A stretch of 64,000 bases of DNA from a virus (taxonomy: Duplodnaviria > Heunggongvirae > Uroviricota > Caudoviricetes), in the IMG/VR virus record IMGVR_UViG_2700989400_000004, positions 6,939 to 70,938 of that record; one strand, 5' to 3'. Positions 5,973-26,985 of the stretch are shown in pieces. Position 1 is the stretch's first letter. Each line of letters starts with the position of its first letter. The translations under genes and the position numbers were made by a program. The notes under the pieces were generated by a model that had not been told where the DNA came from, made no database searches, and worked only from the letters and a program-made list of their open reading frames with translations.

Positions 5973-6066
5973 ACCGGCGCAGAGGAGACAATGCCGGATT
6001 TAAGACGCGGATGCACTGCTGTGTGTACTGTAGAGTCTGGCGGATGTCGACAGACTCTATTTTTTT
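5973..6066 (+). ncRNA. mcaS: small regulatory RNA McaS (IsrA)
   Basis: ~94-nt unit convergent with abgR as in E. coli K-12; GGA-containing 5' region (AGAGGAGACAAUG); intrinsic terminator stem AGAGTCTG/CAGACTCT (6033-6058) plus T7 run; -10-like TATAAC at 5961-5966. Confidence 0.65.
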
Positions 6067-6074
6067 ATGCAGTT

Positions 6075-6983: not shown

Positions 6984-7158
6984 GACGCCACCGATAACCG
7001 TTATTTATCAGACCAAAGAAACTGGCATCTACTTTAATGCAGATGATTGTGTCAGGGTAATTTATGAACGGTTAAAACTGTGAAAAATCAGTTAGTGATA
7101 AGTAAAAACTATCGCTACGTGAACCGGGTCACACTTTTTACTGATGACGGGAAAGGTT

Positions 7159-8469
7159 ATGGAGTCTTTGAATCAATTTGTTAATTCGCTTGCCCCAAAA
7201 TTATCGCACTGGCGACGTGATTTTCATCACTATGCAGAGTCTGGCTGGGTGGAATTCCGCACTGCCACCCTTGTTGCGGAAGAATTGCAGCAGCTCGGCT
7301 ATTCACTGGCGCTGGGCCGCGAAGTAGTTAATGAAAGTAGCCGGATGGGACTACCTGATGAACTCACTCTACAACGCGAATTCGAGCGCGCTCGTCAACA
7401 GGGTGCGCTAGCACAATGGATTGCGGTTTTTGAAGGTGGTTTCACTGGTATCGTCGCCACCCTGGATACCGGTCGCCCCGGTCCGGTGATGGCTTTCCGT
7501 GTCGATATGGACGCGCTGGATCTCAGTGAAGAGCAGGATGTCAGCCATCGCCCCTACCGCGACGGTTTTGCGTCATGTAACGCCGGAATGATGCATGCCT
7601 GTGGTCATGATGGACATACCGCCATTGGGCTTGGGCTGGCGCATACCCTTAAACAATTCGAGTCCGGACTACATGGCGTCATCAAACTGATTTTTCAGCC
7701 TGCAGAGGAAGGTACGCGTGGCGCGCGGGCGATGGTCGATGCAGGTGTCGTAGATGATGTTGATTATTTTACTGCCGTGCACATTGGCACTGGCGTACCT
7801 GCGGGCACCGTGGTGTGCGGCAGTGATAATTTTATGGCAACCACCAAATTTGACGCGCACTTCACCGGTACCGCCGCTCACGCAGGCGCAAAACCAGAAG
7901 ACGGTCACAATGCCTTGTTGGCGGCAGCACAAGCCACTCTTGCACTGCATGCAATCGCCCCGCACAGCGAAGGAGCTTCCAGAGTAAACGTGGGCGTTAT
8001 GCAGGCAGGAAGCGGTCGTAACGTTGTTCCTGCCTCGGCGTTGCTGAAAGTGGAAACACGCGGGGCCAGCGACGTCATTAATCAATATGTTTTTGACCGT
8101 GCACAACAAGCGATTCAGGGCGCAGCAACCATGTATGGTGTCGGCGTTGAAACTCGTCTGATGGGTGCAGCTACCGCCAGTTCTCCTTCGCCGCAATGGG
8201 TCGCATGGTTGCAAAGTCAGGCGGCTCAGGTCGCGGGGGTCAATCAGGCCATTGAACGTGTTGAAGCGCCTGCGGGTTCCGAAGATGCCACATTAATGAT
8301 GGCCCGCGTGCAGCAACATCAAGGGCAAGCCTCCTACGTGGTGTTTGGCACACAGCTGGCGGCAGGTCATCACAACGAAAAATTCGATTTTGACGAGCAG
8401 GTTCTCGCTATTGCCGTCGAAACGCTGGCGCGCACCGCGCTCAATTTTCCCTGGACGCGAGGTATCTGA
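7159..8469 (+). CDS. abgA: p-aminobenzoyl-glutamate hydrolase subunit A (M20 peptidase family)
   Basis: Start at MESLNQFVNSLAPKL with GGGAAAGG SD; M20 metal-binding motifs (…MHACGHDGH…); stop overlaps abgB start. Confidence 0.9.
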   Translation: MESLNQFVNSLAPKLSHWRRDFHHYAESGWVEFRTATLVAEELQQLGYSLALGREVVNESSRMGLPDELTLQREFERARQQGALAQWIAVFEGGFTGIVATLDTGRPGPVMAFRVDMDALDLSEEQDVSHRPYRDGFASCNAGMMHACGHDGHTAIGLGLAHTLKQFESGLHGVIKLIFQPAEEGTRGARAMVDAGVVDDVDYFTAVHIGTGVPAGTVVCGSDNFMATTKFDAHFTGTAAHAGAKPEDGHNALLAAAQATLALHAIAPHSEGASRVNVGVMQAGSGRNVVPASALLKVETRGASDVINQYVFDRAQQAIQGAATMYGVGVETRLMGAATASSPSPQWVAWLQSQAAQVAGVNQAIERVEAPAGSEDATLMMARVQQHQGQASYVVFGTQLAAGHHNEKFDFDEQVLAIAVETLARTALNFPWTRGI

Positions 8470-9914
8470 TGCAGGAAATCTATCGTTTTATCGACGATGC
8501 GATTGAAGCCGATCGCCAACGTTATACCGATATTGCCGATCAAATCTGGGATCATCCAGAAACACGTTTTGAAGAGTTCTGGTCAGCGGAGCATCTGGCT
8601 TCGGCGCTGGAATCTGCAGGCTTCACCGTTACCCGCAACGTAGGCAATATCCCAAATGCCTTTATTGCTTCGTTTGGTCAAGGCAAACCGGTTATCGCCC
8701 TGCTGGGAGAATATGACGCCCTGGCAGGTTTAAGTCAGCAAGCAGGTTGCGCGCAACCTACATCCGTGACGCCCGGTGAAAATGGTCACGGTTGCGGACA
8801 CAATTTGCTGGGAACCGCCGCCTTTGCCGCTGCAATAGCCGTCAAGAAATGGCTGGAACAATATGGGCAAGGCGGCACAGTGCGCTTTTATGGTTGTCCT
8901 GGCGAAGAAGGCGGCTCGGGTAAAACGTTCATGGTCCGCGAGGGGGTATTTGATGATGTGGATGCGGCACTCACCTGGCACCCGGAAGCCTTTGCCGGTA
9001 TGTTCAATACACGCACGCTGGCAAACATTCAGGCATCATGGCGCTTTAAAGGGATCGCAGCACATGCCGCGAATTCCCCTCATTTGGGACGCAGCGCCCT
9101 TGATGCCGTAACGTTGATGACCACTGGCACCAACTTCCTCAACGAACATATTATTGAAAAAGCGCGCGTACACTATGCCATCACAGATAGCGGCGGGATC
9201 TCGCCCAACGTGGTCCAGGCGCAGGCAGAAGTGCTTTATCTTATCCGTGCCCCCGAAATGACCGACGTGCAGCATATTTATGATCGGGTCGCCAAAATCG
9301 CCGAATGTGCGGCATTGATGACCGAAACCACGGTTGAATGCCGCTTCGACAAAGCCTGTTCCAGTTATCTCCCGAATCGCACCTTAGAAAATGCCATGTA
9401 CCATGCCCTATCCCATTTTGGTACCCCGGAATGGAACTCCGAAGAACTGGCTTTTGCGAAACAAATTCAGGCTACGCTCACCCCCAACGATCGGCAAAAC
9501 AGTCTGAATAATATCGCCGCAACCGGTGGCGAAAACGGCAAGGTTTTTGCACTACGTCATCGTGAAACGGTACTGGCGAATGAGGTCGCTCCATATGCCG
9601 CCACCGATAACGTGCTTGCGGCATCGACTGATGTCGGCGACGTCAGTTGGAAACTGCCTGTTGCCCAGTGTTTCAGCCCCTGTTTTGCCGTCGGTACACC
9701 GCTACATACGTGGCAACTGGTTAGCCAGGGGCGAACATCTATTGCTCATAAAGGAATGCTGCTGGCGGCGAAAACTATGGCAGCAACCACAGTCAATCTC
9801 TTCATTGATTCAGGGCTATTGCAAGAATGCCAACAAGAGCATCAGCAAGTTACGGACACGCAACCGTATCACTGCCCTATCCCGAAAAACGTGACACCGT
9901 CACCTTTAAAATAA
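8469..9914 (+). CDS. abgB: p-aminobenzoyl-glutamate hydrolase subunit B (M20 peptidase family)
   Basis: 481-aa ORF with M20 signature (…GHGCGHNLLGT…), coupled to abgA. Confidence 0.9.
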   Translation: MQEIYRFIDDAIEADRQRYTDIADQIWDHPETRFEEFWSAEHLASALESAGFTVTRNVGNIPNAFIASFGQGKPVIALLGEYDALAGLSQQAGCAQPTSVTPGENGHGCGHNLLGTAAFAAAIAVKKWLEQYGQGGTVRFYGCPGEEGGSGKTFMVREGVFDDVDAALTWHPEAFAGMFNTRTLANIQASWRFKGIAAHAANSPHLGRSALDAVTLMTTGTNFLNEHIIEKARVHYAITDSGGISPNVVQAQAEVLYLIRAPEMTDVQHIYDRVAKIAECAALMTETTVECRFDKACSSYLPNRTLENAMYHALSHFGTPEWNSEELAFAKQIQATLTPNDRQNSLNNIAATGGENGKVFALRHRETVLANEVAPYAATDNVLAASTDVGDVSWKLPVAQCFSPCFAVGTPLHTWQLVSQGRTSIAHKGMLLAAKTMAATTVNLFIDSGLLQECQQEHQQVTDTQPYHCPIPKNVTPSPLK

Positions 9915-9950
9915 CAACAACAACGCAAACACAACAACCGAGGAATGCCC

Positions 9951-11396
9951 ATGAGTATGTCATCCATACCGTCGTCCTCCCAATCCGGGAAGCTCTATGG
10001 CTGGGTCGAAAGAATTGGTAACAAGGTTCCCCATCCTTTTTTGCTCTTTATCTATTTGATAATCGTACTCATGGTGACGACGGCAATTTTGTCAGCCTTT
10101 GGCGTCAGTGCGAAAAACCCGACCGATGGTACGCCGGTGGTGGTGAAAAACCTGCTCAGTGTGGAAGGATTACACTGGTTTTTACCCAATGTGATTAAAA
10201 ACTTTAGCGGTTTTGCTCCACTTGGAGCGATCCTGGCGCTGGTTTTAGGTGCCGGCCTAGCGGAGCGCGTCGGCTTACTGCCAGCGCTAATGGTTAAAAT
10301 GGCATCGCATGTTAATGCCCGCTACGCCAGTTATATGGTGCTGTTTATTGCTTTTTTCAGCCACATTTCTTCCGATGCGGCGTTAGTGATCATGCCACCG
10401 ATGGGTGCGCTGATTTTTCTGGCGGTGGGCAGGCATCCAGTTGCAGGTTTACTGGCTGCCATTGCAGGCGTAGGTTGCGGCTTTACGGCTAATTTACTGA
10501 TTGTCACAACCGACGTGTTGCTGTCGGGGATCAGCACGGAAGCGGCGGCTGCGTTCAATCCGCAAATGCACGTCAGTGTAATTGATAACTGGTATTTTAT
10601 GGCCAGCTCCGTAGTCGTACTGACGATTGTTGGCGGCCTGATAACCGACAAAATCATCGAGCCACGATTAGGTCAATGGCAGGGAAACAGCGATGAGAAA
10701 CTGCAGACATTGACCGAAAGTCAGCGTTTTGGTTTACGCATAGCAGGTGTCGTATCGCTACTTTTTATTGCTGCGATCGCGCTGATGGTGATCCCGGAAA
10801 ACGGGATATTGCGCGATCCGATTAATCACACCGTGATGCCATCACCCTTTATTAAAGGTATCGTGCCACTGATCATTCTTTTTTTCTTTGTTGTCTCGCT
10901 GGCTTATGGCATCGCTACCCGCACAATTCGACGTCAGGCGGATTTACCGCATTTAATGATTGAACCGATGAAAGAGATGGCGGGATTTATCGTGATGGTT
11001 TTTCCCCTCGCCCAATTTGTCGCCATGTTTAACTGGAGCAACATGGGGAAATTCATCGCCGTGGGGCTGACCGATATACTTGAAAGTTCAGGGCTTAGCG
11101 GCATCCCGGCGTTTGTCGGTCTGGCGTTGCTTTCCTCTTTCTTATGCATGTTTATTGCCAGCGGTTCCGCAATCTGGTCGATTCTGGCCCCCATTTTCGT
11201 ACCAATGTTTATGCTACTTGGCTTTCACCCGGCATTTGCGCAAATCCTCTTTCGTATTGCCGACTCATCCGTATTGCCTTTAGCGCCGGTATCTCCTTTT
11301 GTTCCACTGTTTCTTGGATTCCTGCAACGCTACAAACCAGACGCAAAACTGGGTACTTACTATTCGTTAGTCTTGCCCTATCCGCTTATCTTTTGA
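9951..11396 (+). CDS. abgT: p-aminobenzoyl-glutamate transporter AbgT
   Basis: Start MSMSSIPSS… with GAGGA SD; polytopic membrane protein; C-terminal end abuts the prophage boundary. Confidence 0.85.
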   Translation: MSMSSIPSSSQSGKLYGWVERIGNKVPHPFLLFIYLIIVLMVTTAILSAFGVSAKNPTDGTPVVVKNLLSVEGLHWFLPNVIKNFSGFAPLGAILALVLGAGLAERVGLLPALMVKMASHVNARYASYMVLFIAFFSHISSDAALVIMPPMGALIFLAVGRHPVAGLLAAIAGVGCGFTANLLIVTTDVLLSGISTEAAAAFNPQMHVSVIDNWYFMASSVVVLTIVGGLITDKIIEPRLGQWQGNSDEKLQTLTESQRFGLRIAGVVSLLFIAAIALMVIPENGILRDPINHTVMPSPFIKGIVPLIILFFFVVSLAYGIATRTIRRQADLPHLMIEPMKEMAGFIVMVFPLAQFVAMFNWSNMGKFIAVGLTDILESSGLSGIPAFVGLALLSSFLCMFIASGSAIWSILAPIFVPMFMLLGFHPAFAQILFRIADSSVLPLAPVSPFVPLFLGFLQRYKPDAKLGTYYSLVLPYPLIF

Positions 11397-11545: not shown

Positions 11546-13630
11546 TTACTCTTCGCTTCCGGTCAACTGCTTAACAAGCGCAACCAGTTCGCTTACCTGA
11601 TTTTCAAGCGCGGTAATGCGTGCATCTTGAGTAACTATGGCTATATCTTGATCCTTACATACTCTGACGAGATATCCAACGATGCCGGAGTAATTAACAC
11701 CCAAAACAATTTTTTCACCAGTAAGCACGGTGCCGTCACTTGTCGGTCCTGGCATCTCTTTTGTTATTGTTACTTCGCGAACTACTTGCGGCAATATCTT
11801 TTGCCATTCCTGTGCTATAACACCAGCGCACGCCCTATTATCACCAATAAAATTGAATGTATATCCGTTAACGTGCTGCAATAATTTTCTGGCCTCCTGT
11901 ATTTCCATAATATTTTCTTTTTCATTTATATCTGATGTTTGTGTTAATTCTGAGCAGGAGACTTTACCGGATGTGAAGATATCTGCGGTTGATGTTATTT
12001 TTTGTGAGAAGTTGGCTGTTGCTGTTACGTTCATTTTTCCAGCAAATACAGCGTTGGAGTCCGACTGAAGTTTTGTTTTTGCTCTTACTGTACCTGCGGT
12101 TATTGTTGTTGGCGATGATAACTGCTCCGCATAGGATTGCGCATTGGCTTCTGATTCTGCGGCTGCGGCTGCTGCTGCTGCTGCGTTTTCCGCTTCAGAT
12201 GTTGCGGTGGCGGCACGCTCTTCAGCCAGCACGCTGTAACCCTCTGCAGCGTCTCTCGCGGCTATGGCTTCATCCCGCGCGCTGGTCGCTGTGTTAGCGG
12301 CGCTGGTCGCGGCGGTCGCGGCACTGGTAATGGTAGCCGCCTGTTCAGTTGCAGTGGTTGCCTGCGCCACTGCTTCATCGCGGGCCGCTTCAGTGGCGGT
12401 CTGCGCGGTCTGTGCCGCTTCTGCGGCTTGGGTGGCGGCGGTTGCTTTTTGGGTTGCTGTATTTACGGCGGCTGATATCTTCGATTCGTCTATAGCAATA
12501 CTACTAGCGCTTGCTTCCGCTGCTTCTGCGGCGGTTTCTGCGTCGTTTTTATGCTCAAGCGCTGCGGCGGCGGCAGTGGTTGCCTCATTCGCTTTTTGGG
12601 TCGCTGTGTTAGCGGCGCTGGTCGCGGCGGTCGCGGCACTGGTAATGGTAGCCGCCTGTTCAGTTGCAGTGGTTGCCTGCGCCACTGCTTCATCGCGGGC
12701 CGCTTCAGTGGCGGTCTGCGCGGTCTGTGCCGCTTCTGCGGCTTGGGTGGCGGCGGTTGCTTTTGCTGCCAGTTCTTTTTCATCGATAGCGATATTAGCG
12801 GCGGTTGTTTCTGCTGCTGCGGCTGCGGCTTCGGATTTCTCCGCTTCTTCCTTCGCATACATGCGCAATTCATAAACAGCGGCACGATCTGCCGCTACGG
12901 CTTCGGCATCTGTATTGGCTGCTGCGGCGGCTTGGGTGGCGGCTGACGCCTGTTCAGTTGCTACTGTTGCTCGTTCAGTTGCGACGACTGCTCTCGCGGT
13001 AGCTTCGTCGCGTGCTGCTTCGGTAGCAGTCTGCGCGGTCTGTGCGGCGGTGGCGGCATTGGTGGCGGTAGTAGCTTGTTCGGTCGCTACGGTTGCCTGT
13101 GTGGCGGCGGTGGCGGCTTGTTCACCAGCCAGCACGCTGTAACCTTCTGCGGCATCTTTCGCGGCAATAGCTTCATGCCGCGCGGCGGCGGTTGTTTCAA
13201 CGTCTGCGGCGGTGGCGGCGGCGTTGGCGGTTGATTGCGCTGTTTCTGCCTGAATAGCGGTTAACAGTGCTTCTACCTGCGCGGCATCACCATAATTTTT
13301 CCAGTATTCAACGGCGGCATAGATCTCTGATTCCTGCCCGGTGAAATAGCGTAATGCTTCCGCTACGTCTTGCGCCAGCCCGTCAACTGAGATCGAATCG
13401 CACAGTAAAATACTGTAAGCAGTACCCGCCGGAATATCCGGTGATGCTGCCGGGGTTATAGATAATTCCGTTTCACTGACAATTTCAGTGATGGAAAAGA
13501 TCTGAATAGGGTCGCTTTTTACAATAACTGTGCACCCCACGCGGATCATGGATAAGGGTGCTTTAAAATTTGTACCCGTCCCGGTCAGCGTGTTACCGGA
13601 TACGGCAATACTTCCAATGGTGTAGATCAT
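11546..13630 (-). CDS. tail fibre protein with Ala/Thr-rich repeat rod
   Basis: 694-aa ORF; long A/T-rich internally duplicated segment; C-terminal globular domain (…GYTFNFIGDNRACAGVIAQEW…); last gene of tail module. Confidence 0.7.
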   Translation of the reverse strand: MIYTIGSIAVSGNTLTGTGTNFKAPLSMIRVGCTVIVKSDPIQIFSITEIVSETELSITPAASPDIPAGTAYSILLCDSISVDGLAQDVAEALRYFTGQESEIYAAVEYWKNYGDAAQVEALLTAIQAETAQSTANAAATAADVETTAAARHEAIAAKDAAEGYSVLAGEQAATAATQATVATEQATTATNAATAAQTAQTATEAARDEATARAVVATERATVATEQASAATQAAAAANTDAEAVAADRAAVYELRMYAKEEAEKSEAAAAAAETTAANIAIDEKELAAKATAATQAAEAAQTAQTATEAARDEAVAQATTATEQAATITSAATAATSAANTATQKANEATTAAAAALEHKNDAETAAEAAEASASSIAIDESKISAAVNTATQKATAATQAAEAAQTAQTATEAARDEAVAQATTATEQAATITSAATAATSAANTATSARDEAIAARDAAEGYSVLAEERAATATSEAENAAAAAAAAAESEANAQSYAEQLSSPTTITAGTVRAKTKLQSDSNAVFAGKMNVTATANFSQKITSTADIFTSGKVSCSELTQTSDINEKENIMEIQEARKLLQHVNGYTFNFIGDNRACAGVIAQEWQKILPQVVREVTITKEMPGPTSDGTVLTGEKIVLGVNYSGIVGYLVRVCKDQDIAIVTQDARITALENQVSELVALVKQLTGSEE
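12286..12449. repeat. direct repeat copy 1 inside tail-fibre gene (~164 bp)
   Basis: Near-identical to 12600-12763; encodes repeated …AAQTAQTATEAARDEAVAQATTATEQAATITSAATAATSAANTAT…. Confidence 0.6.
12600..12763. repeat. direct repeat copy 2 inside tail-fibre gene (~164 bp)
   Basis: Near-identical copy of 12286-12449, offset 314 bp in the same frame. Confidence 0.6.
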
Positions 13631-13663: not shown

Positions 13664-13678
13664 ATTCTACCATTTTGT
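13664..13678 (-). promoter_or_regulatory. conserved motif TTTTGTGATCTGYGT upstream of late gene (copy 1 of 3)
   Basis: Same 15-mer at 19964-19978 and (1 mismatch) 25932-25946, each under 50 nt upstream of a minus-strand start (tail fibre, L, tape measure). Confidence 0.35.
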
Positions 13679-13812
13679 GATCTGCGTTGCATTTTATGCT
13701 TGCACAAAATGTATTTATTGATTTATGCCAATACAATAAATCATTTACAGTGAATGTAACTTGCCACAATTTATGATGTAAATTATTGGCGTAAAAATAA
13801 AAACAATGCATA

Positions 13813-13836
13813 AAAACGGGGCTTATGCCCCGTTTT
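13813..13836. terminator. bidirectional intrinsic terminator after J
   Basis: Perfect hairpin CGGGGC-TTAT-GCCCCG flanked by T/A runs on both strands, immediately after the J stop. Confidence 0.5.
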
Positions 13837-13840
13837 ATTT

Positions 13841-16800
13841 TTATGCTGTAGTTGATGCGCTAAATGATCCTGTTCCTCTTGATACTAGCATTGTCGGAGA
13901 ATACAAAGCCATACAATATGAGTAGCCTTCTGATGCTGATGTTTGTGGGCAATATATTTCCCCGGTAATCCTTGATGTTGTTAAACCAGAAAAAGCGCAT
14001 TGCACTGTTAATGTGCATCCACCATAAGGTACGTAGTATTGAATTGTTTTACTTTGACCTCCGCAACTAAACGTTACGTTATAAGTTGATCTATATTCAC
14101 CAGATGTCAATGTAATCGTTGCCATAAGCATAACTGATTTCGTCAATGCACTGGTTGTGCTGTCGTTATATGTGATGGTTGCTTTATAACTTCCGTTATA
14201 CCCAAGTACTCGATCTGGACCAACACCCATGTTAGCAACGTCACCAACAAATGATGTGGCTTCAACTACTCCCTTAAATTTACCGTCAGTTGCGTTAATA
14301 GTACCATTAAACACCCCAGAATTAGCGTATACCGTGCCGCGTACTGTTACGTTATTAAATTCAGCGTTACCATTCTTATTAATCATCCACCCGGCGGAAC
14401 CGGAAACATAATTGGATGATTGGATTTGCTGCGCAATTTTTGCGGTAGTAATCGATGCGTCTTTAATAAACGCTTCGCGCACATACATTGCACCATTCGT
14501 AACATAGAAAGGTGTCGTATATGTGCCGTTTGCCGCCGTCATTAACACAAAGCGGTCAACAAGGAAAATGCACTGCGATTGTGTGCTTGTGCCGCTGCCA
14601 GTCAGGCCAAGCGAGATACCGGAAAAATATTTCATTCCGTTACTGTCTGCGGCGATCTTAACGCTCCACGTTGCCGACATGTCTGATTCAAGGCTGGTGA
14701 TAGCGGTTTTGTTTTCCTCAATTGATACTGATTGCCCCTCAATTGACGCCGTGATACTTTCGATCTGTGTGGCGGTCGATTCCTGGTAAGACGTAAACGC
14801 TTCGCTCCACTCCGTAATCGACGCCTCGTTTGCTTCCAGTGATGCGCTAATCTGCGCAAACTGTGTAGCGTTGGCTTGTTCATGTGTGGCTAATGCCTGA
14901 TCCACGCTGCTGATCGCTGATGAGATATCGCCGTCTACTTTCGCCTCAAGGTTATTGATGGATTCAGCCGTGGATGATTCCAGATCGGTGATTGTCTGGT
15001 TGATCTCCGTTAAGCTGGCCTGGATATCCTCGTTTACCTGGCTTTCCAGTTTTTCGATTGATTGGCTTGTTGAGCTTTCAAGCGTCGCGATGGTCTGCTG
15101 TAGTTCGGTTACGTTAGCGCTGATTTCGTCATTAACCTTGCTTTCAAGCGTGGTAAGCGCCTGCGCGGTCGCTTCCTTCTCTGTAGCAATAACTGAATCA
15201 ATGCGCTCGATTTCCGCCTTCGTTTCTGCTTTCTGGTTTTTATATTGCGCCGTTAACGTGGTGCGGGTGCTGGTGTTAGCCAATGAGTTATTCATAAGCG
15301 CAATGGCTGCGTTTTGCAGGCTGGCGCGGGTCTGCATTAGCTCGTTTTCTTGCTCCGTCAATTCTACGCTGATTTCGTTAATCTGGCTTTCATGCTCCCC
15401 GATCCCGTCCTCGTTGTTTTTTACACGTTCTTCCAGATCGGCGGTTGACTCCTTCAGGTCGGTAACAGCCTGGTCAATGTCTACCGTGGTTTGTTTCAGT
15501 TCTTCCACGTCACCCATTAAACCGCCTGTTACTTCGCCTATGGAGTCCTTGATCATGTTCTGGAATTGCTCGCCTTCCATAACTTCATTCAGCACGGCGT
15601 CTGTAATTTCCTCGAAGTTTTCGGAAGGTTTACCGCTGGCTTCGATAAAGTCAGATACACCGAAAGCGTTTTTTGTGCGCACGTAAACGTAATACGTATG
15701 GCCCGTTGCCATACCGCCGAAGGTCCATTGATACCCGCGCCCGGTGAATTGCGCTGATGTTGTTACCTGGCTGAAGTCAGTGATCTGGTTTTCTCCGGCA
15801 TAATAGAATTCGTAACTGGTATCGGTCGTTAGCGTGGTGCTGCTGATCGGGTAAACAGTCGCCTGGAAAACACCTGGCACCCAATTAACGCCGACCGGGG
15901 CCGCTGGCGCACCAATCACCAGATCTACAATACTTTCCGCCCCCTTCATGCCAGTGTCATTACGCCCGCGAATACCCAACGTGTAATTCCCTGCGTCGAG
16001 GCCATAAAATTCATAACGGTAATTCGTGGTTTCATAACTTGCCACCACGCGCCCGTCTGCGTTATATACGCGGATTTCGAAGGTCAGGGGATGCGTTGTT
16101 GTCTGCGTCTCCCAGGTGGCGCGGCATTGAACCGTTTCTGACCCAACGTTTACCACTTTCAAATTTTCGATGTTCGGGACACGGAAGTGATTTAGCGTGT
16201 CGCTACTGATTTCGAAGATTGCGCCTTCATCGACTACCGCCTGTTTGTTCGGGTCGTGCTGCGCGGCTTCGATGGTGTATACGCTGTTATTTTCGGTTTC
16301 GGCTACGCTGGTGATCCGGCATAAAACGGGTTTTGCTGCTTCAGTGGATACAGCGAAAACGGTCCCGTTACGAATCCACGCCGGGGCCGCCGCTAAGGTG
16401 ATCTCATTTCCATTCACCCCGGTGATCTGGTGTTTTTTAAATTTGCCATCACTATCGAGCAAGCTGATGGTGTCGCCTGCGGTGATGTATTCTGAATCAA
16501 CCTTATCGACCGTTATCACCTTGCCATTGTTCGCCACGATACGACCGCCTAAACGAGCGCCCGCGCGGTTATTGTCGAGGATCTCGATGATATCCCCTGG
16601 TGTAAAGTGAATCGCGTCACGGGCCATTTTAAACGTGAATTTTGACGGCTCGCGTTTTGCTGTTTCTATCAGCCACTTGCCCGCGCGGTACGCTTGCCCG
16701 CGTGATGTGCACCCGAACGCCTCTAACGTGGTTTCGTTGTAACCATCACGGGCGATCAGTTCATCGTCTGCTACATACTCTTTTGATTGCTCCCAGCCGT

Positions 16801-19242: not shown

Positions 19243-19947
19243 TCACCCTACCTTGCTGGAACCAGGGAAACAGGCGATCGGTAGCGCTGCTGGACGCGGG
19301 AAACGTAAACGACAACCGCTTAGGCGGTGACTGCATCTATCTAAATTCAGATCATTGGTTGGTACATCCTTATCAGTAGCCACCGGACCGCCAGAATACA
19401 TACATCCATCGCCCCTATATTGCCATTGACAAACATCCGCCAGGATAGTCCGGCCTGGGATAATCGCTTTATCTGCGTCAATCGGCGTTGATAACTCATA
19501 CTGAACCTGATCTGCTGTTTCTTCTGCCATTGCTTCAATGACGTAAAAAGATACAGCCTCAATAGATGGATCTGCGTCTGGATTGCCGTTAGGGAAGTTA
19601 ACGGCGTCCAGGTATTTAACCTCCACCTGGCGGCGCGTAACCTTCATTCCTCTAAGGTCGTTGAAATCGTTATTCATCCCCGTAATGAGTCCGCCGATAT
19701 TGGCTACAGCCATTTGAGGACGTGAATAAACGCCCTCGTTTTTCATTTCGAAGCCAGTAGCCTCGATCGGGTAGCTGTTGTAAGTTAATCCCTTCCAGAT
19801 AACCGGGCCGTAATAGCCATTCGCGCCGGAATGGAAGCGGATAACCTCGCCACCCAGGGGCGACAAGTCCAGTTCGAACAAGTCAATCACCGCGCCCACA
19901 CCAGCGTCCACGGAATCAATAATCATCTCTGTAGGTATATTGCGCAT
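19243..19947 (-). CDS. L: minor tail protein (lambda L-like)
   Basis: C-terminal Cys motif (…CQWQYRGDGC…CSHRLSGC…) as in lambda L; ATG at 19947 with GAAGGTGAG SD. Confidence 0.7.
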   Translation of the reverse strand: MRNIPTEMIIDSVDAGVGAVIDLFELDLSPLGGEVIRFHSGANGYYGPVIWKGLTYNSYPIEATGFEMKNEGVYSRPQMAVANIGGLITGMNNDFNDLRGMKVTRRQVEVKYLDAVNFPNGNPDADPSIEAVSFYVIEAMAEETADQVQYELSTPIDADKAIIPGRTILADVCQWQYRGDGCMYSGGPVATDKDVPTNDLNLDRCSHRLSGCRLRFPRPAALPIACFPGSSKVG

Positions 19948-20076
19948 TTTCTCACCTTCTGATTTTGTGATCTGCGTCACGCTAAATCATACCAAAATGG
20001 ATTGATCGCGGTTTATACAATATGTATATTTTACTCAAACGGAAGCACAGTTAACAAAATGGCGCGGAGGTGTGAG

Positions 20077-20232
20077 ATGGCTGATAAGGTGTGGAGGTTG
20101 AAGGTATTCCTGTCAGGTGGCAGGGAAATGACTGTAGCTCTGTATAAAGACGAAGGCGAGGCACTGACTGACGCGCTATTACTCACTGAAGACGAACGCG
20201 TTTTGGGGTACAGAATCGAACCTGTCAAATGA
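20077..20232 (+). CDS. hypothetical protein (moron, 51 aa)
   Basis: Opposite strand to tail operon; GGAGGTG SD 6 nt before ATG. Confidence 0.4.
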   Translation: MADKVWRLKVFLSGGREMTVALYKDEGEALTDALLLTEDERVLGYRIEPVK

Positions 20233-20244
20233 GAGGTTAACGAA

Positions 20245-20592
20245 ATGCAAAAATATAGTCTTGATGTGTGGTTAAGTGGTTGCAAGGAGTGTTTCGGATT
20301 ATTTGATAGCGAAGAGGCAGCTTTGGAAGAAGGAAGGATTCTTGAATGTAGTTTAGGCCATCCAGTGAAATATGCCGCTAATCCGGTGCAGATAATTGAT
20401 GAGGTGGAAAACATGAACCCGAAAGATATTAACTTTAACGTCAATGTTGAATTTGCTGATTCTATGGATCAGTCTTGCCCTGGTGAAATACACGTAAAAG
20501 GTTTCCCGGCAGACGACATGAAAGCGAAACATGAATACGAAAAAGCGGCGAAAGATTTCTGCATCGACAATCTGAGCGCGTTTAATAAATAA
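20245..20592 (+). CDS. hypothetical protein (moron, 115 aa)
   Basis: GAGAGG SD; protein-like translation. Confidence 0.45.
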   Translation: MQKYSLDVWLSGCKECFGLFDSEEAALEEGRILECSLGHPVKYAANPVQIIDEVENMNPKDINFNVNVEFADSMDQSCPGEIHVKGFPADDMKAKHEYEKAAKDFCIDNLSAFNK

Positions 20593-20601
20593 GGCGGCAA
20601 T

Positions 20602-20850
20602 ATGGCGCGGCGTAATCACGGGGATTATGTGTACACGTTGAAACAAGCCGCCCGCCTTATTGGCTATCATGAGCATGAATTTATTGATTTGCTGATTGAG
20701 CGCGGGATTCTGTACCAGGTTTGTTTAACGTTGTACCCAAAAGCTAAATACCTACAGGAAAAATTATTCATCATCATGACGGATGAAAACCAAGTTAATC
20801 ATTCATTCGTCACTGACAGGGGCGTTAATTATCTGCGTGATAACTTATAG
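20602..20850 (+). CDS. hypothetical protein, possible HTH (moron, 82 aa)
   Basis: AAGG SD; helix-turn-helix-like stretch YTLKQAARLIGYHEHEFIDLLIERGIL. Confidence 0.45.
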   Translation: MARRNHGDYVYTLKQAARLIGYHEHEFIDLLIERGILYQVCLTLYPKAKYLQEKLFIIMTDENQVNHSFVTDRGVNYLRDNL

Positions 20851-21617: not shown

Positions 21618-21971
21618 TTAATTCATCACTTGCTCAAACATCGCGGTTAGCGTGAATACGGGGCCATCCTTCGTCATGTTCCATTTTCGGCAGACAAAAA
21701 GCCTTTGCACTCCATCCATCGACGGCGACCAGTAAAACGCCTCGACCGCGCCGCGCGCCCGTAAAAACGCCTCCGCCTGGATCGCTGGATTGCCAGCGTC
21801 ACCGCATCCGGCGCTCGACCCCTTAAAAACCACGCTGTAATCGTCGAGCAAGGGATTAATCCCTTTAACCTGGCGTTGCTCATAGCCATCACCCAGCTTG
21901 ACGACCGACACGTTCGGCTCCCTGGTTACGCTGTAGCTACGCTGCGGCGTCCAGGTAAACACTTCCGGCAT
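21618..21971 (-). CDS. M: minor tail protein (lambda M-like)
   Basis: 117 aa; conserved …LGDGYEQRQVKGIN… and C-terminal …FEQVMN as in M-family proteins. Confidence 0.7.
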   Translation of the reverse strand: MPEVFTWTPQRSYSVTREPNVSVVKLGDGYEQRQVKGINPLLDDYSVVFKGSSAGCGDAGNPAIQAEAFLRARGAVEAFYWSPSMDGVQRLFVCRKWNMTKDGPVFTLTAMFEQVMN

Positions 21972-22004
21972 AATTCCCCCTATAAATTACATTTTGTATA
22001 CATC

Positions 22005-22030
22005 TTTACGCGCTTCTACGCGAAAAATGA
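22005..22030 (-). promoter_or_regulatory. conserved ~26-nt element upstream of M (copy 1 of 2)
   Basis: TTTACGCGCTTCTACGCGAAAAATGA here vs TTTACGCGTTGCTACGCGGAAAATAG at 35175-35200 upstream of portal; both followed (minus orientation) by SATGTATWCA then the start codon. Confidence 0.35.
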
Positions 22031-22140
22031 GAACTTCATCACAAGAATTATAACCAGTTTACAAAATGGCTTCACACAGGACGCAACAAGATGTATACAG
22101 AAAGCAAGAAGAAAAGCAGTACCAACAAAGGAGGCCCAAG

Positions 22141-22308
22141 ATGAAACGCAACGATAAACACTACGCGGTCGTAATGCTTAATAACGCATTTGAACAAGTA
22201 GAAGTGGCGATCGTTAAAGGCTTTGATGATGCATTCAAAATGGGCCAGTTCTACATGAACGTGAAGGAAAACGAATACCGGGATTTCTACCTGAAAGCGG
22301 TCAACTAA
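22141..22308 (+). CDS. hypothetical protein (moron, 55 aa)
   Basis: Strong AGGAGG SD 8 nt before ATG at 22141. Confidence 0.4.
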   Translation: MKRNDKHYAVVMLNNAFEQVEVAIVKGFDDAFKMGQFYMNVKENEYRDFYLKAVN

Positions 22309-22325
22309 GGATGATGGGGTGAGCT

Positions 22326-22580
22326 ATGAAACTGGTAGCGATTGATAAAAATTTGAAGGTACAGAAAAACGCGCAGGACCGGATCATCAAAAAGGGTAAG
22401 GCTTTATTAAATGCTTTCCTGAAAAAAGAAGCTCACCCCAAAAAGTTACGCGATGGTTACGGTTATAAATTTGATATCAACCCCGATTGGCGGTTATTCA
22501 GCGATGATTTGAAGGTGTGGTTAATTATCGAGCATCATTATTATAATGTTAAATGTGGGGTTAAGGGGGCGCATAAATGA
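22326..22580 (+). CDS. hypothetical protein (moron, 84 aa)
   Basis: GGGGTGAG SD; lysine-rich protein-like ORF. Confidence 0.45.
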   Translation: MKLVAIDKNLKVQKNAQDRIIKKGKALLNAFLKKEAHPKKLRDGYGYKFDINPDWRLFSDDLKVWLIIEHHYYNVKCGVKGAHK

Positions 22581-22814
22581 GATGGCGTGAATTACATAGC
22601 TACGGCATCCGGTTTTCCCTGGTTGTCCTGAAAGATTGGTTTAATCGCCAGGTGGCAAACGATGCGTTAATCCCGTTTGCTGATAACAAGCCTTATAAGC
22701 GCGATGGGGTGAGATATGGAAGATGATAAATTTACATGGCGGGAGATCTGGAATATTTGGCAGGTAATTTTCGGAAGGGGATATATTGCGCGGAATGGTC
22801 GATTGTAGAGGTAA

Positions 22815-22997
22815 ATGATGATTATTCATGAAACGGAAGAATGTCGGCGGATTAATCTTAGTATTGAGTATGACGAAAGATTATGGCTTGAAAGCGACTG
22901 CGAAATAATCGTAATAGACAAAAAGCAAGCCGCCGAACTGATAAGCGCATTACAGCTTTATGTAAACAACGAATTTAAAAATGACGAAGTTGAATAA
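22815..22997 (+). CDS. hypothetical acidic protein (moron, 60 aa)
   Basis: GAGGT SD; followed by terminator. Confidence 0.4.
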   Translation: MMIIHETEECRRINLSIEYDERLWLESDCEIIVIDKKQAAELISALQLYVNNEFKNDEVE

Positions 22998-23003: not shown

Positions 23004-23040
23004 CCCCCAGCTTTCGCCGGGGGTATTATTTTATTTTTTG
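23004..23040. terminator. bidirectional terminator between moron island and tape-measure gene
   Basis: CCCCC…GGGGG hairpin followed by tattattttattttttg. Confidence 0.4.
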
Positions 23041-25916
23041 CGCGGTTGTAACATGCCACCGGGGCGTGTGCTTTGTTCCCTAACTACCCCCATAGCCACG
23101 CGTTTCATTGTGTCTTCAAGTCTGCGGCTATCCTCATCACTAAAACCGTTTGTCGTTTGAACGGTAATACTAACAGGCATGTTGATGCTGCCACCACCGC
23201 CCAAGTCGCGGTTAGGAGTAATACGCCCACCTTCACCGGGGATTATGTACTGTTTCCCGCCAGTAGTGGTAAACAGCTCCGGTTTACCGTGCTCACCAAC
23301 CCTATAAAGATTGCCGCCATTAACCGCACCGCCGTTGTAGCGTCCGCCACCGAAAATGGACGTCGCCAGCGACATGATTGCAGACAATGCCGCCGCACCA
23401 GCCGCCGCCCAGCTACCGCCAGTTGCCGCCGCCGTCGCCGCCGCCGCCGGGGCCGCCGCCGCTGCAATCTGACCTTGCGCCGCTACCGCGCCCGCCGTGG
23501 TGCTGGCTTGCGTTGCCTTGCTCTGACTTTCCATCATGATTTGGTCGGCTATCCAGTTTGCTGCAATCTGAGATAAGCGGTTGCCTACCGTGCCGAGAAT
23601 GTTGCTACCCAGGTTAGCAAACATCTCGCTTAGGGATTGTGTGCCGTTGAGCAATCCGGTAATGGCGTTACCCATGCCGCTTGTTAAGCCGTTGACGCAA
23701 TCGCCGATAAGCGCGTTAGTGTCGCTTTGCGCTTGCCATTGCTCCCACTTAAGCGCGGTTAGCTGTTGTTCATAGGCTAACTCTTCCATTTTCAATTGGG
23801 CCTGTGTAGCGCCTAAATCAGTGAGCATTTGCTTTCTGATAGTCCATTCATTTTGCAACTGCTGAATAGGGTCTACCTGGCCTTTTTTCTTGTCTTCATC
23901 AGAAACAAGGCTATCCCATTTGGCTTGTTGTTCTTCCTCGCGTAGCTGTTTCAGCGTGTCAGACAACGCCTTGCTTGCGCCCTCCTTCGCGGCTGTATAT
24001 TCCAGATAAGTGATCTTACCTTGCTTGTACGCTGCATCCAGGGCTTTTTGTTCTTCGCCAAGTTTACGCATAGCGGCGGCGTCTTTGTTGTACTGGTCGG
24101 AAATATTTAAGCCTTCATCGCCTAACTTATCCCAATCGGATTTTTTCGACTTCTTGCCCTTCCCGTCCTTGCCGCCACTGCCACCGCTGCCGCTTCCCGT
24201 TCCGGTTGGTTTCGGCGGAACATATGTACCATTAATACGGGCTTGTGCTTCGTCGGCTTTCTCGTTGGCTTTTTCAAGGTTTTTATTAGCCGTGTCTAAC
24301 TTACCTTCTAAGGTCTTCTGAGTATCCCCGGCGACACCTAGCGCCGCTTTTGCAGGTCCGGCAATTTCTGGATCATCACTCTGCGCTAATTTTTCCAGGA
24401 TGGCGCGGTTTTTCACCATGCGATCCAGTTCGGCTTTTGCCTTCCGGGCGTTTTCCTCAATGTCTTTGAGTTGTTTGTTTATCTCAATCAAAGCCGCTTC
24501 CAGTTCATTTTTGCTCATATCGTCGAACGACATAGCCAATTCGTCGATTTTGGCTTTTGCGTTGGCGGCTTTCTCTTCAGTGCTTTCCATGTTAAGGATA
24601 AGCGTACCCAGGCAGATCGCAGCGGTCATGATTGCGCCAGCGGGGCCACCAAGTAACCCTAACGCGCCATTGAAGATCCGCATCCCGATGCTGGCGGCTT
24701 TTGCTGCTGTACCGGACGCAACGATTGCCGCGTTAGCCGTGGTGGCAGCGGTGCGCATAGTCGTGTAAGCGGCGGCGGTTTGCGCTTGCGCTACACGGAG
24801 GCGAGCAAGCGCGGCGGTGTGGGCGTTTGTACCCTGCGCGGCCTGGTAGTGGGCGCGGGCCTCCCCTTCTGCCTGCAATGCTGCTTTAAGTCCGGCGGCG
24901 GCTGTGTGTAGCTGCTGGCGTGCCAGGTTGGCTTCTGCTGCTGCCTGCTGCGCGGCGGCCTGTGCTGCTTTCTGGTTGGCGGCTGCCAGCCGGATGTTTT
25001 CCGCCGTTGCCTGGATGATGCCACCTAACGCCCGTCCACCCATTACAGCACCAAGTGCAATGGCGGAGGCGGTTACAACGTCCAGGTTTTCAGATAGGGT
25101 GATCAGCGTGCTGTTAAACGCGTTAATCCCGCTACGGATCACAGAGTTTTCACCAAAATACTTAGTCGCGTTGTTGGTGGCAACTGTGAAGGCATCCGAC
25201 ATAGTGATCGCCATATTGTCGAACTCTTTATCTACTTCGGACTTCATCGCCCGGACCGCTGCGATAATTATATCTTTCGTGATCTTGCCGTCCTTCGCCA
25301 TTTCACGCAATGCGGTACTGGATACGCCCATTGATTTTGCGATACCTTCCGCCAGGCGTGGCGCGTTCTCCATTACGCTATTGAATTCATCGCCGCGCAA
25401 TTCACCAGATCCCAAGGCCTGGGCCAATTGTCTGATCCCGCCTTCCATTTCGCTTGCGGATGCGCCGGACACCTGAAAGGATTTGTTAATCGTTTCCACG
25501 ATGCTTGCCAGGTCACGCCCGCTTAGTCCGCTGTCACGCGTTGCGCGTTCCAATTTGGAGTAAAGCGCGGCGGTCGCATCCAGTGGTGACATTGATTTCT
25601 GTGCGGCCTTAAAAACCCGGTTTGTAACTTCTTCCAGTGATTCATTTGACCGGACGGAGTTAACCAGCTTGTTGTTTACTTCTTGCCAGGCGTTGGCGTA
25701 CTCAATGATCTTTCTTGTCACCAATGCCGCACCAACCGCGCGGGCAACCGTGGATAGGCTCGCCAGGGATTTACTTGCCTTATCAGCGGCGGTGTCTACC
25801 CGTTGCAGGTCTTTTTCCATCGCTCCGGTTGCCTTGTCTACTTCTTTCTGTGCAACCAGTAGCGATCCGGTTTTGGCGTCGATCGTGTATTCAATCGCGC
25901 CTACATTTTTAGCCAT
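23031..25916 (-). CDS. tail tape measure protein
   Basis: ~960-aa coiled-coil Ala/Gln-rich ORF with Gly-rich segment; ATG at 25916 (MAKNVGAIEY…) with CGGAGA SD. Confidence 0.8.
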   Translation of the reverse strand: MAKNVGAIEYTIDAKTGSLLVAQKEVDKATGAMEKDLQRVDTAADKASKSLASLSTVARAVGAALVTRKIIEYANAWQEVNNKLVNSVRSNESLEEVTNRVFKAAQKSMSPLDATAALYSKLERATRDSGLSGRDLASIVETINKSFQVSGASASEMEGGIRQLAQALGSGELRGDEFNSVMENAPRLAEGIAKSMGVSSTALREMAKDGKITKDIIIAAVRAMKSEVDKEFDNMAITMSDAFTVATNNATKYFGENSVIRSGINAFNSTLITLSENLDVVTASAIALGAVMGGRALGGIIQATAENIRLAAANQKAAQAAAQQAAAEANLARQQLHTAAAGLKAALQAEGEARAHYQAAQGTNAHTAALARLRVAQAQTAAAYTTMRTAATTANAAIVASGTAAKAASIGMRIFNGALGLLGGPAGAIMTAAICLGTLILNMESTEEKAANAKAKIDELAMSFDDMSKNELEAALIEINKQLKDIEENARKAKAELDRMVKNRAILEKLAQSDDPEIAGPAKAALGVAGDTQKTLEGKLDTANKNLEKANEKADEAQARINGTYVPPKPTGTGSGSGGSGGKDGKGKKSKKSDWDKLGDEGLNISDQYNKDAAAMRKLGEEQKALDAAYKQGKITYLEYTAAKEGASKALSDTLKQLREEEQQAKWDSLVSDEDKKKGQVDPIQQLQNEWTIRKQMLTDLGATQAQLKMEELAYEQQLTALKWEQWQAQSDTNALIGDCVNGLTSGMGNAITGLLNGTQSLSEMFANLGSNILGTVGNRLSQIAANWIADQIMMESQSKATQASTTAGAVAAQGQIAAAAAPAAAATAAATGGSWAAAGAAALSAIMSLATSIFGGGRYNGGAVNGGNLYRVGEHGKPELFTTTGGKQYIIPGEGGRITPNRDLGGGGSINMPVSITVQTTNGFSDEDSRRLEDTMKRVAMGVVREQSTRPGGMLQPRKK

Positions 25917-26046
25917 AGCGTTGATCTCCGTTTTTGTGATCTGTGTAACTATTTTATACAAAATGGCTTTGCTTTAACGACTCCATTTTGTATAAAGAAG
26001 CCATAGGGAATAGGTAGTTAAACAAACAAGTTAAGTGGGGTGGGTT

Positions 26047-26229
26047 ATGAACGTATACGAAGCCATCAGAAATATTAGAAATATCGAGAAAAATGTAGGT
26101 AACGAGGCGGCGCAAGAAGAATGCAAAATGTACATGAAGAAGCTACCACGCCGTGAACAATTTGTTTTGGGTGGCCCTAGCCTAGCGATGGAATTCGCAA
26201 GATTAAGAAAAGAAATGCTCAATAACTAA
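26047..26229 (+). CDS. hypothetical protein (moron, 60 aa)
   Basis: GTGGGGTGG SD; charged helical peptide upstream of lipoprotein gene. Confidence 0.4.
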   Translation: MNVYEAIRNIRNIEKNVGNEAAQEECKMYMKKLPRREQFVLGGPSLAMEFARLRKEMLNN

Positions 26230-26247
26230 TATTTAACTGGGTGAAAC

Positions 26248-26985
26248 ATGAAAAACGTAATTAAAGCGGCTCTTATTGGTGTTATGGCTTTCGGTCTTGT
26301 AGGTTGCGCACCTTCATATTCAGAGCAAGTAAAAGCAATAGAAAAAGGCGTGCTAATGCTGGATAAAACGGGGGTTAACAAGGATGCATGGAAAGTAAAA
26401 GCAGATGATTATGTCGCCGATTGCAACAACCTTAAGAGATACAAAGGAAAAACAGGTGAAACCGCCGTACTATTATGCGAACTAATCATCAAAGAAGATG
26501 AACTAACAGAAAGCGGACTATATACAAGCGCGGCTAACCTCGGCGTCGATATAGCGGGCCTTTATGATGTACTAAGTAATAAAAATTCAGCCGCTGCATT
26601 ATCAGCCGAACGTGTAGCAAAACTTGTGATAAGTGCTAATAAGTCAGCATTTCGCAATAGACAACAAGTTATAGAAAATGAATGCCGCGGCTTTATGGAT
26701 AAAAACTTTAAAGGCTGGAGTGAGTTAAACCCTATAGATGACGAAATTTATAATAATTGCCGGAATGCCGCAATGTTCTCTGATGAAAGCAAAAACAGAA
26801 TGGGGAGCATAATTTCTACAACGCTCGCATATAGAGTAAGACACCTCGATCAAAAAACAAAAACAAATGTATTAACTAACGCATTCATAGCAGTTCAGGC
26901 AGGCTGGAGTATAGGGAATGGATATCACGCCGTAAAACCGACTCCGGCAGAACTACAAGCGATTGCGCTACGCGATGCAAAGTGA
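26248..26985 (+). CDS. lipoprotein (moron, 245 aa)
   Basis: Signal peptide plus lipobox MKNVIKAALIGVMAFGLVGC; GGGTGA SD; opposite strand to tail operon; followed by strong terminator. Confidence 0.6.
   Translation: MKNVIKAALIGVMAFGLVGCAPSYSEQVKAIEKGVLMLDKTGVNKDAWKVKADDYVADCNNLKRYKGKTGETAVLLCELIIKEDELTESGLYTSAANLGVDIAGLYDVLSNKNSAAALSAERVAKLVISANKSAFRNRQQVIENECRGFMDKNFKGWSELNPIDDEIYNNCRNAAMFSDESKNRMGSIISTTLAYRVRHLDQKTKTNVLTNAFIAVQAGWSIGNGYHAVKPTPAELQAIALRDAK

Follow-up and report, generated by a model that had tools for sequence, protein, structure and literature searches.

Why should a short sequence recur in front of several tail genes of one phage, at the places where the tail operon resumes after an interruption? 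The question is raised by a window of 64,000 nucleotides (the whole stretch of DNA analysed here, positions 6,939 to 70,938 of IMG/VR record IMGVR_UViG_2700989400_000004), which carries a mEp021-like prophage. The original prediction distinguished a 15-mer upstream of the tail fibre, minor tail L and tape measure genes (element A in what follows) from a longer element upstream of minor tail M and the portal gene (element B), and took both for re-entry signals, i.e., late promoters, processing sites or junctions left by modular recombination. This interpretation is partly supported by our results: it was partly right about the place and wrong about the nature of element A. The repeat most likely serves as a regulator site rather than as a late promoter, qut site or processing site. 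In our estimate, the odds lean slightly towards its being one half-site, with the adjoining flank, of a site for the host cyclic AMP (cAMP)-CRP complex, one such site being placed at each interruption of the tail operon within a region of back-to-back promoters.

On the plus strand of the window the pattern TTTTGTGATCTGYGT of element A has exactly three matches (13673-13687, 19963-19977 and 25932-25946), a count that was unmatched in 100 shuffles. If up to two mismatches are allowed, there are four matches compared to 0.31 expected, and four were reached in 0 of the 100 shuffles; the fourth, weaker one, at 40940, lies within a coding open reading frame (ORF) and was rejected as probably a chance match. 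On the minus strand, which is that of the late genes, the element reads ACRCAGATCACAAAA, and its copies are placed as follows:

13673-13687, minus strand: element A copy 1, ACGCAGATCACAAAA on the gene strand, 43-57 nt upstream of the fibre ATG at 13630.
19963-19977, minus strand: element A copy 2, 16-30 nt upstream of the L-like ATG at 19947.
25932-25946, minus strand: element A copy 3, 16-30 nt upstream of the tape measure (TMP) ATG at 25916.

The third copy had been located exactly, the first was 9 nt and the second 1 nt off. Matches to PHROG families bear out the identities given to the three downstream genes, and each of these genes does follow a gap or an opposite-strand insert, as had been claimed. 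The prophage belongs to the mEpimmI group, with ~80% identity to mEp021, mEp010/013/044/515/554 and MagusPhagus and 81-94% identity to ~35 prophages of complete E. coli genomes. Both A and B are conserved at orthologous places in mEp021, in 10 annotated relatives (L001, L003-L011) and in ~50 IMG/VR contigs.

Element A consists of the strong half-site (AGATCACA), a part of the spacer and the flanking A/T run of a 16-bp site of the type TGTGA-N6-TCACA. The whole window was scored with a matrix derived from the 107 CRP 16-mers located by chromatin immunoprecipitation sequencing (ChIP-seq) on the chromosome of enterotoxigenic E. coli (ETEC) H10407 (PMC4287617, Table 1). Eight positions of the window reach at least 12 bits versus 1.7 +/- 1.4 in shuffles, and six of the eight are in the prophage. 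The prophage sites of this type are the following, the first four being given with no strand assigned:

13676-13691: CRP-type 16-mer at the fibre gene, TGTGATCTGCGTTGCA, 11.7 bits (42nd percentile of bound sites); median of the relatives 14.4 (TGTAA left half).
19966-19981: CRP-type 16-mer at L, TGTGATCTGCGTCACG, 17.7 bits, above 93% of the ChIP-seq-bound sites.
22028-22043: CRP-type site at the M re-entry point, TGTGATGAAGTTCTCA on the gene strand, 12.4 bits (48th percentile); up to 15.3 in relatives.
25935-25950: CRP-type 16-mer at TMP, TGTGATCTGTGTAACT, 12.6 bits (49th percentile); 7.0-14.5 in relatives.
46815-46830, minus strand: perfect CRP-type site in the early region, TGTGACGCTAATCACA, 17.1 bits.
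51191-51206, minus strand: CRP-type site in the early region, 17.3 bits.
56031-56046, plus strand: CRP-type site in the immunity region, 15.0 bits.

All seven sites are intergenic when the true gene starts are used, and only ~10% of the prophage is intergenic; lower-scoring matches of the matrix fall mostly within genes. The L site scores 17.3-18.2 bits in the 10 annotated relatives and 14.5-18.6 bits among 20 distinct variants of the larger set. The division into an element A for the fibre, L and TMP genes and an element B for M and the portal hides the CRP-type site that adjoins element B at M. In the host part of the window, a site in the abgR-abgA intergenic region (CGTGAACCGGGTCACA at 7118-7133) reaches 15 bits and is identical to a CRP ChIP-seq site of ETEC H10407, labelled ycjZ/mppA in the table (PMC4287617).

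The manner in which the four late sites vary is as informative as their scores. Among 15-22 distinct variants per locus, the entropy amounts to 0.06-0.21 bit in the half-sites, 0.75-0.80 in the spacer and 0.30-0.66 in the flanks, so that the six spacer positions form the most variable stretch of each region and the ten half-site positions are almost fixed. At L, the spacer takes the forms CGCA, CGTA, TGGC, CGTC, CACA, CTTA, TTGA and others between a constant (C)GTGA and a constant GATCACA. In mEp021 the sites occupy the orthologous places with different spacers and at the same distance to the -35 box (17 bp for the early sites). Half-sites that are kept around a drifting spacer are the signature of a dimeric protein site and not of a recombination scar, and the avoidance of the ten half-site positions by substitutions, which pile up in the spacer over ~50 genomes, points to selection on the half-sites. 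For element A this speaks against the recombination junctions of the original prediction. It also bears on the possibility that a single promoter module was multiplied through duplication or modular recombination, so that the repeats would be junctions at the insert borders and the 15-mer would have no function by itself. Three of the regions do have a common architecture (ATTTTG, a -10-type box, then the site) at insert borders, their spacers are drawn from the small set C(G/A)(C/T)AGA, and the loop variants AAG and CAA of element B are common to its M and portal copies, which suggests conversion between the copies. Apart from the distribution of the substitutions, however, this explanation is at odds with relative L005, whose upstream region at the fibre gene is non-homologous and has TGTGT-ATACTG-TCACA at the same place, and with the intergenic blocks, which are conserved at least as well as the flanking genes; we regard it as very unlikely. 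Folding of the element A regions as RNA does not exceed that of shuffles (z = -0.4 to -0.7), Rfam has no matches to them, and three of the four palindromes, drawn as hairpins, carry uncompensated mismatches; an RNA structure was therefore rejected for element A.

If the sites are those of CRP, the question is which promoters they serve, and here the gene order of the prophage has to be considered. The window is E. coli chromosome with McaS at 5973-6068 and abgA/abgB/abgT at 7144-11396; the prophage is integrated at the 3' end of abgT and extends past the end of the window. In the window and in all annotated relatives, plus strand inserts split the tail operon in the order fibre, insert, J-I-K-L, insert, M, insert, TMP, insert, tail shaft and head. 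The genes concerned, those of the minus strand named from PHROG matches, are:

11546-13630, minus strand: tail fibre.
19243-19947, minus strand: minor tail L-like.
21618-21971, minus strand: minor tail M-like.
23031-25916, minus strand: tape measure.
33770-35152, minus strand: portal.
20077-20850, 22141-22997 and 26047-26985, plus strand: genes that interrupt the tail operon in the window.

Among the opposite-strand accessory genes of the window or its relatives are those of an exclusion lipoprotein, a KilAC-domain (antirepressor-type) protein and a ParE-like toxin. In the insert upstream of M (22141-22580, plus strand) a 55-aa protein is followed by the ParE-like toxin (PF24732), and the two probably are a toxin-antitoxin pair carried as an accessory cassette.

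Promoters were called with a simple hexamer matrix whose frequencies follow the classical compilations, and the spacing was measured from the centre of the CRP-type site to the first base of the -35 box. Measured identically on the MG1655 sequence, the spacing of lac P1 is 25.5 bp, which corresponds to -61.5. A class I CRP site centred at -59.5, next to an A/T-rich stretch, has been validated experimentally for PestA2 of ETEC (PMC4287617). The plus strand promoters that face the tail genes, abbreviated below as L(+), M(+) and TMP(+), are:

20002-20030, plus strand: predicted promoter facing L, TTGATC-17-TATATT, for the genes at 20077-20850; spacing 28.5 bp (27.5 in some relatives).
22071-22099, plus strand: candidate promoter facing M, TTCACA-17-TATACA, found by inspection, for the genes at 22141-22997; spacing 35.5 bp.
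25968-25996, plus strand: predicted promoter facing TMP, TTTGCT (TTTACT in most relatives)-17-TATAAA, for the genes at 26047-26985; spacing 25.5 bp.

The spacing at M(+) is one helical turn longer than that of lac. At the fibre gene the relatives have a plus strand -10-type box (AAAATG-TATTTA or TATATT) fixed 20 bp after the site, which would put the site in a class II-like position (~-40.5, assigned by eye); the gene served would be that of the Lpp exclusion lipoprotein, the plus strand gene on the fibre side of the relatives, which is known from a plasmid to confer superinfection exclusion (PMC11893012). Relative L007 speaks for the CRP explanation: it has no plus strand gene before the fibre gene and no CRP-type site there (best 3.7 bits), and keeps the -10 box of the fibre gene. 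Four of the seven CRP-type sites, compared to 2.6% of intergenic positions, have a promoter scoring 9 bits or more at a distance of this kind. As for the positions typical of the CRP classes (near -41.5, or -61.5, -71.5), the spacing of lac P1 is found at TMP(+) and at two early promoters, their starts being predicted ones.

In the window the lipoprotein gene that relatives have between J and the fibre gene is missing (13692-13845, plus strand), and the J-fibre gap contains a terminator only. A plus strand transcript from the retained promoter-like fibre region would run for only ~115 nt to the bidirectional terminator at 13813-13836, and could be a relic or a small RNA.

The other strand of the same regions is not empty. 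At each of the four re-entry points a conserved -10-type box faces the tail gene:

13672-13664, minus strand: extended -10 box of the fibre gene, TGGTAGAAT, retained by L005 and L007 although their upstream sequence is unrelated; site centre at ~-26.5 of the predicted start.
19994-19986, minus strand: extended -10 box of L, TGGTATGAT; site centre at ~+5.5 of the predicted start.
22047-22075, minus strand: predicted promoter of M, GTGAAG-17-TATAAT (TATAAT at 22052-22047); site centre at ~+4.5 of the predicted start at 22040.
25958-25951, minus strand: -10-type box of TMP, TATAAAAT, preceded by CCATTTTG; site centre at ~+2.5.

The TATAAT of M is invariant in all variants, and TGGTAGAAT and TGGTATGAT are nearly so. 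The -35 boxes of this strand are weak at the resumed tail genes; it is the -10-type boxes that are conserved across the relatives. At L, M and TMP the CRP-type site starts 0-4 nt after the box (centre at ~+2 to +6), and at the fibre gene it lies between the -35 and -10 of the extended -10 promoter. From this position over the late-strand boxes a bound protein would be expected to block the promoters. Since a box is conserved at each re-entry point, re-entry of transcription into the tail operon is plausible, and to this extent the late-promoter idea has something in its favour. The repeat itself, however, lies downstream of, inside or between the boxes: the 15-mer of element A supplies neither a -35 nor a -10 hexamer at the correct spacing, and a simple consensus scan called none of the boxes TGGTATGAT, TATAAAAT and TGGTAGAAT.

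This geometry is an argument for a second explanation, in which internal late re-entry promoters have element A as their operator or initial transcribed region and a phage-encoded regulator, not CRP, recognises the element and silences these promoters in the lysogen or activates them late. A palindrome 0-4 nt after a conserved late-strand -10-type box, seen in four regions, is the sole geometry common to all copies; the fibre region of the window keeps its site despite the absence of a plus strand gene, and the phage encodes several helix-turn-helix proteins. Yet the sites match the matrix of host CRP ChIP-seq sites very well, and sites of the same type stand at the lac P1 distance before early promoters, which is the position of an activator and not of an operator. 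No candidate phage factor was identified. The prophage repressor was rejected as the binder of element A because the operator-like repeats of this CI-type protein in the immunity region (CAAGTC/GACTTG) differ from it. A phage regulator of this kind appears unlikely to us.

The bulk of late transcription probably comes from elsewhere, namely from a separate Q-dependent promoter upstream of the holin gene. A PR'-like late unit is present there (40542-40460, minus strand), with TTGTAT-17-TAAAAT at 40542-40514, a short leader with AACAAT and a strong terminator; it is conserved in relatives and lies downstream of the Q gene (PF03589, 44583-45311). In the window, a direct repeat of GGATTAAA spans the spacer and -10 of the unit. 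No sequence is shared between this PR'-like/qut unit at ~40542-40460 and elements A and B, and a qut/PR' identity of the two elements was rejected for lack of any similarity. A nut identity was rejected also: the three nut sites of the window were located, neither element has their boxA (GCTCTTTAA), and the loop of B differs. Between the lysis genes and the small terminase gene (37200-38150, minus strand) there is a series of ~10 tiny ORFs of 21-47 codons, every one hydrophobic or similar to a single transmembrane segment and provided with its own start codon.

In the early and immunity regions the remaining three CRP-type sites stand in front of promoters that belong to one phage family, TTG(T/A)CC with a 16-bp spacer ending in CC(A/G)TTTTG and then TA(A/T)ACT:

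46770-46830, minus strand: early unit, site at 46815-46830, 25.5 bp before TTGTCC-16-TATACT, directly upstream of nutR2.
51146-51206, minus strand: early unit, site at 51191-51206, 25.5 bp before TTGTCC-16-TAAACT.
56031-56092, plus strand: immunity-region unit, site at 56031-56046, 26.5 bp before TTGACC-16-TAAACT.

In the first of them (46720-46830, minus strand) the CRP-type site and the promoter abut nutR2 (boxA TGCTCTTTAAAAA, boxB CCGC-UGAAAU-GCGG), and mEp021 is arranged alike; with the site and TTGTCC-16-TATACT directly before it, this N-utilisation site seems to own a promoter. The family, by the end of its spacer and its -10 box, explains the over-representation of CATTTTGTATAC / CATTTTGTAWAC, the most over-represented 11-12-mer of the window, which has 28 matches with up to two mismatches versus 7.6 expected. 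CATTTTGTAWAC occurs window-wide, for example at 21990, 25954, 25984, 46771, 46840, 55237, 59083 and 60225. Its identity as a -35 box was rejected on inspection, the hexamers 17 bp downstream not being -10-like; it fits better as spacer end plus -10. In three promoters the -35 box is immediately preceded by ACAAAATGG, the reverse complement of CATTTTGTAWAC, in a position like that of an UP element. TTTACATTTTGTATACATC may resemble the OmpR C1 site of ompC. Among the promoters predicted in the window the strongest is TTGACT-17-TATATT (15 bits), situated at 55170-55260 on the minus strand in the interval from the repressor gene to the N-like gene; it is bracketed by the inverted repeat TTGACTCG...CGAGTCAA and preceded by GTATACAAAATGGA.

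From the sequences of the sites, their conservation, scores and spacings we infer the binding of CRP, the transcription starts and the direction of regulation, and the following scheme is proposed. At high cAMP, CRP would occupy one site per interruption of the tail operon and would recruit RNA polymerase to the promoters of the opposite-strand accessory genes by class I or class II contacts. The same bound CRP would occlude the facing internal promoter of the tail gene. It would also help at least two internal early promoters and possibly the immunity-region promoter, and the bulk of late expression would be left to the Q-dependent promoter upstream of the holin gene.

Several observations weigh against this scheme. 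Two of the copies, those of fibre and TMP, do not rise above about the median of the bound sites, TMP falling to 7-8 bits in some relatives, and the enrichment is confined to high scorers, as sites with up to two mismatches to the consensus are not enriched overall (30 observed vs 26 expected). At L(+), the spacing of 27.5-28.5 bp departs by 2-3 bp from the canonical class I phase. The -10 box of M(+), TATACA, has no conserved final T and was not called by the promoter scan, and in the fibre region the scan called no consistent plus strand promoter; every start point is a prediction from hexamer matches. The fibre region of the window, without a plus strand gene, still keeps its CRP-type site. 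It is not obvious why CRP should repress tail-gene promoters in a lysogen grown on glucose. The binder may alternatively be a phage-encoded protein of CRP-like specificity.

Element B is a separate, real and lineage-specific element, present twice per genome. Its two CGCGTAR units are spaced by 10 bp, with T5 and A3 as flanks. Its pattern, TTTACGCG-N3-CTACGCG-R-AAAAT, has exactly two matches in the window versus 0.02 expected:

22005-22028, minus strand: element B copy 1, ATTTTTCGCGTAGAAGCGCGTAAA, 34 nt before the M-like ATG at 21971.
35175-35198, minus strand: element B copy 2, ATTTTCCGCGTAGCAACGCGTAAA, between terL and the portal gene; the portal ATG at 35152, which is led by a Shine-Dalgarno (SD) sequence, is 23 nt away.

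The two copies that had been described before M and the portal, at ~26 nt, are confirmed with the extents of 24 bases given here. The portal ORF had been started at 35173, which is an in-frame upstream ATG; the SD-led start is the one at 35152. A search of the window with a matrix from 22 copies found no third copy. Over ~50 genomes the core T5-CGCGTAG-NNN-CGCGTAA-A is fixed in everything except NNN, apart from one genome with CACG in the first unit; NNN occurs as AAG, AGG, AAA, AAT, CAA, CGA and CTA. In IMG/VR the pattern is found in a phage context only in mEpimmI-like contigs, and the extended pattern has only 5 chance matches in 185,579 species genomes. At M the element follows the CRP-type site directly, within the leader of the TATAAT promoter. 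The portal copy lies in the 57 nt that separate terL from the portal gene, of which only the block from the T-run to the ATG is conserved. The portal genes of six relatives (L003, L005-L009) bear the RefSeq/PGAP label 'anti-CBASS protein Acb1 family protein'; the window orthologue of the portal so labelled matches PHROG 146 (portal, E = 3e-115), and the label is probably a naming artefact.

As to the function of element B, its sequence is compatible with two proposals, which we rate about equal: a site to which a protein binds in tandem, or a short GC hairpin in the leaders of M and the portal. Broader than the hairpin itself is the proposal that both elements act in RNA, as leader or intercistronic signals for the processing, stability or translation of the tail and portal mRNAs, with B as the hairpin CGCGU-AGNR-RCGCG extended by U/A pairs. 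Both copies of B are on late mRNA 23-34 nt before start codons, a hairpin with a GC stem of 4-5 bp plus U/A pairs can be drawn in which 92.7% of cells pair, and the M leader folds better than shuffles (z = -2.66). Nevertheless, shuffled controls pair equally well, there is no covariation beyond these controls and the changes that are seen break pairs; the portal region has z = -0.2, Rfam gave no matches for B, and a 7-bp direct repeat accounts for the invariant TAG and TAA no less well than a loop does. Together with the insignificant folds and uncompensated mismatches of the element A regions, this makes a common action of the two elements in RNA quite unlikely. In the search for distant relatives in which covariation might appear, the portal protein found none in genome_contigs, and IMG/VR gave only relatives with 83-97% identity. 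In read-through RNA of the M region (21968-22060, minus strand; the fold with z = -2.66) base pairing is possible between UUAUAAUUC, a promoter segment, and GAAUUAUG at the M start codon, and could mask the translation of M in transcripts from upstream.

A number of known elements were rejected, or found unconvincing, as identities of element B. For a sigma-70 promoter the downstream TATACA/TATTCA has no final T and is unconserved in L003 and L004, and a start there would strip the portal of its SD; in the absence of a conserved usable -10, the late-promoter idea is unlikely for element B as well. The start of a mini-ORF (ATGTAT) does not agree with the ATA that replaces ATG in many genomes. 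The CpxR box, with the consensus GTAAA-N5-GTAAA, is not convincing, being matched at chance level only (GTAGA-N5-GTAAA in the M copy and GTAGC-N5-GTAAA in the portal copy, matches with at most one mismatch being expected ~4 times in 128 kb), and the invariant CGCG lies outside this consensus. The Mlc/NagC operator has TT and AA at +/-5,6 around its symmetry centre (PMC4288165), positions at which element B has CGCG. By inspection, only GTAG agrees with the RfaH ops site, and on neither strand does a U-run follow the hairpin, as a terminator would have it.

The arrangement may be compared with several known systems. With the class I CRP promoters such as lac P1 and PestA2 of ETEC the prophage shares the 16-bp core TGTGA-N6-TCACA and, at TMP(+), 46815 and 51191, the 25.5 bp spacing of lac P1; unlike these promoters, the prophage sites are known from sequence, lie in back-to-back promoter regions and include the L copy, which is 2-3 bp out of phase. 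CRP at divergent or overlapping promoters is familiar from the autoregulation of crp through a divergent transcript. There, as proposed for the prophage, one site would activate one strand and lie downstream of or over the start on the other; in the prophage, however, the arrangement recurs four times along one phage operon, and the repressed partners would be promoters of structural genes. The accessory genes, with their own promoters and terminators between tail genes and an expected expression in the prophage, are also reminiscent of lambdoid morons, the promoter-gene-terminator cassettes of late regions such as lom and bor of lambda or the morons of HK97 and HK022. The difference is that the prophage cassettes are on the opposite strand and split the tail operon into blocks, each bringing a CRP-type site and facing the conserved promoter box of the next tail gene.

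Lambda PR'/qut with Q antitermination has its counterpart in the Q protein (PF03589) and in the PR'-like promoter, leader and terminator before the holin gene, whereas elements A and B share no sequence with it, have no terminator after them and are far from the Q gene. The nut sites of mEp021 (PMC11893012) resemble element B in having a T-rich stretch and, after it, a small GC hairpin whose loop is rich in purines; unlike them, element B has no GCTCTTTAA boxA, has the loop UAGNNN in place of the UGAAAU and UGCGAA of the three nut sites, and lies in the late region.

The mEpimmI group is a gut-prevalent family of E. coli phages described only in 2025, and the paper concerned, the only genomic one on the group, makes no mention of promoters, CRP or these repeats (PMC11893012). 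Most likely, this recently described family carries host CRP sites in its bidirectional promoter regions. A more far-reaching idea, which we put forward tentatively and consider rather doubtful as a whole, is that mEpimmI phages have hard-wired cAMP-CRP into their entire transcription plan, with a two-way switch at each tail interruption, which would choose between the genes of lysogenic conversion (exclusion lipoprotein, KilAC-domain protein, toxin) and the internal promoters of the tail genes, with lac-like class I sites at early promoters (among them one directly before nutR2 and one at the immunity region), and with a second, phage-specific factor acting on the CGCGTAR repeats before M and the portal.

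If CRP binds the sites, the carbon status of the cell would control the accessory genes (superinfection exclusion, a toxin and a KilAC-domain (antirepressor-type) protein) in a common family of gut E. coli prophages, and probably the early promoters of the family too. The case also illustrates that what appears to the eye as a conserved late-gene signal can be the site of a host regulator which belongs mainly to the opposite strand. If this reading is true, it would provide a testable link from the metabolism of the host to lysogenic conversion and to the lysis-lysogeny decision.

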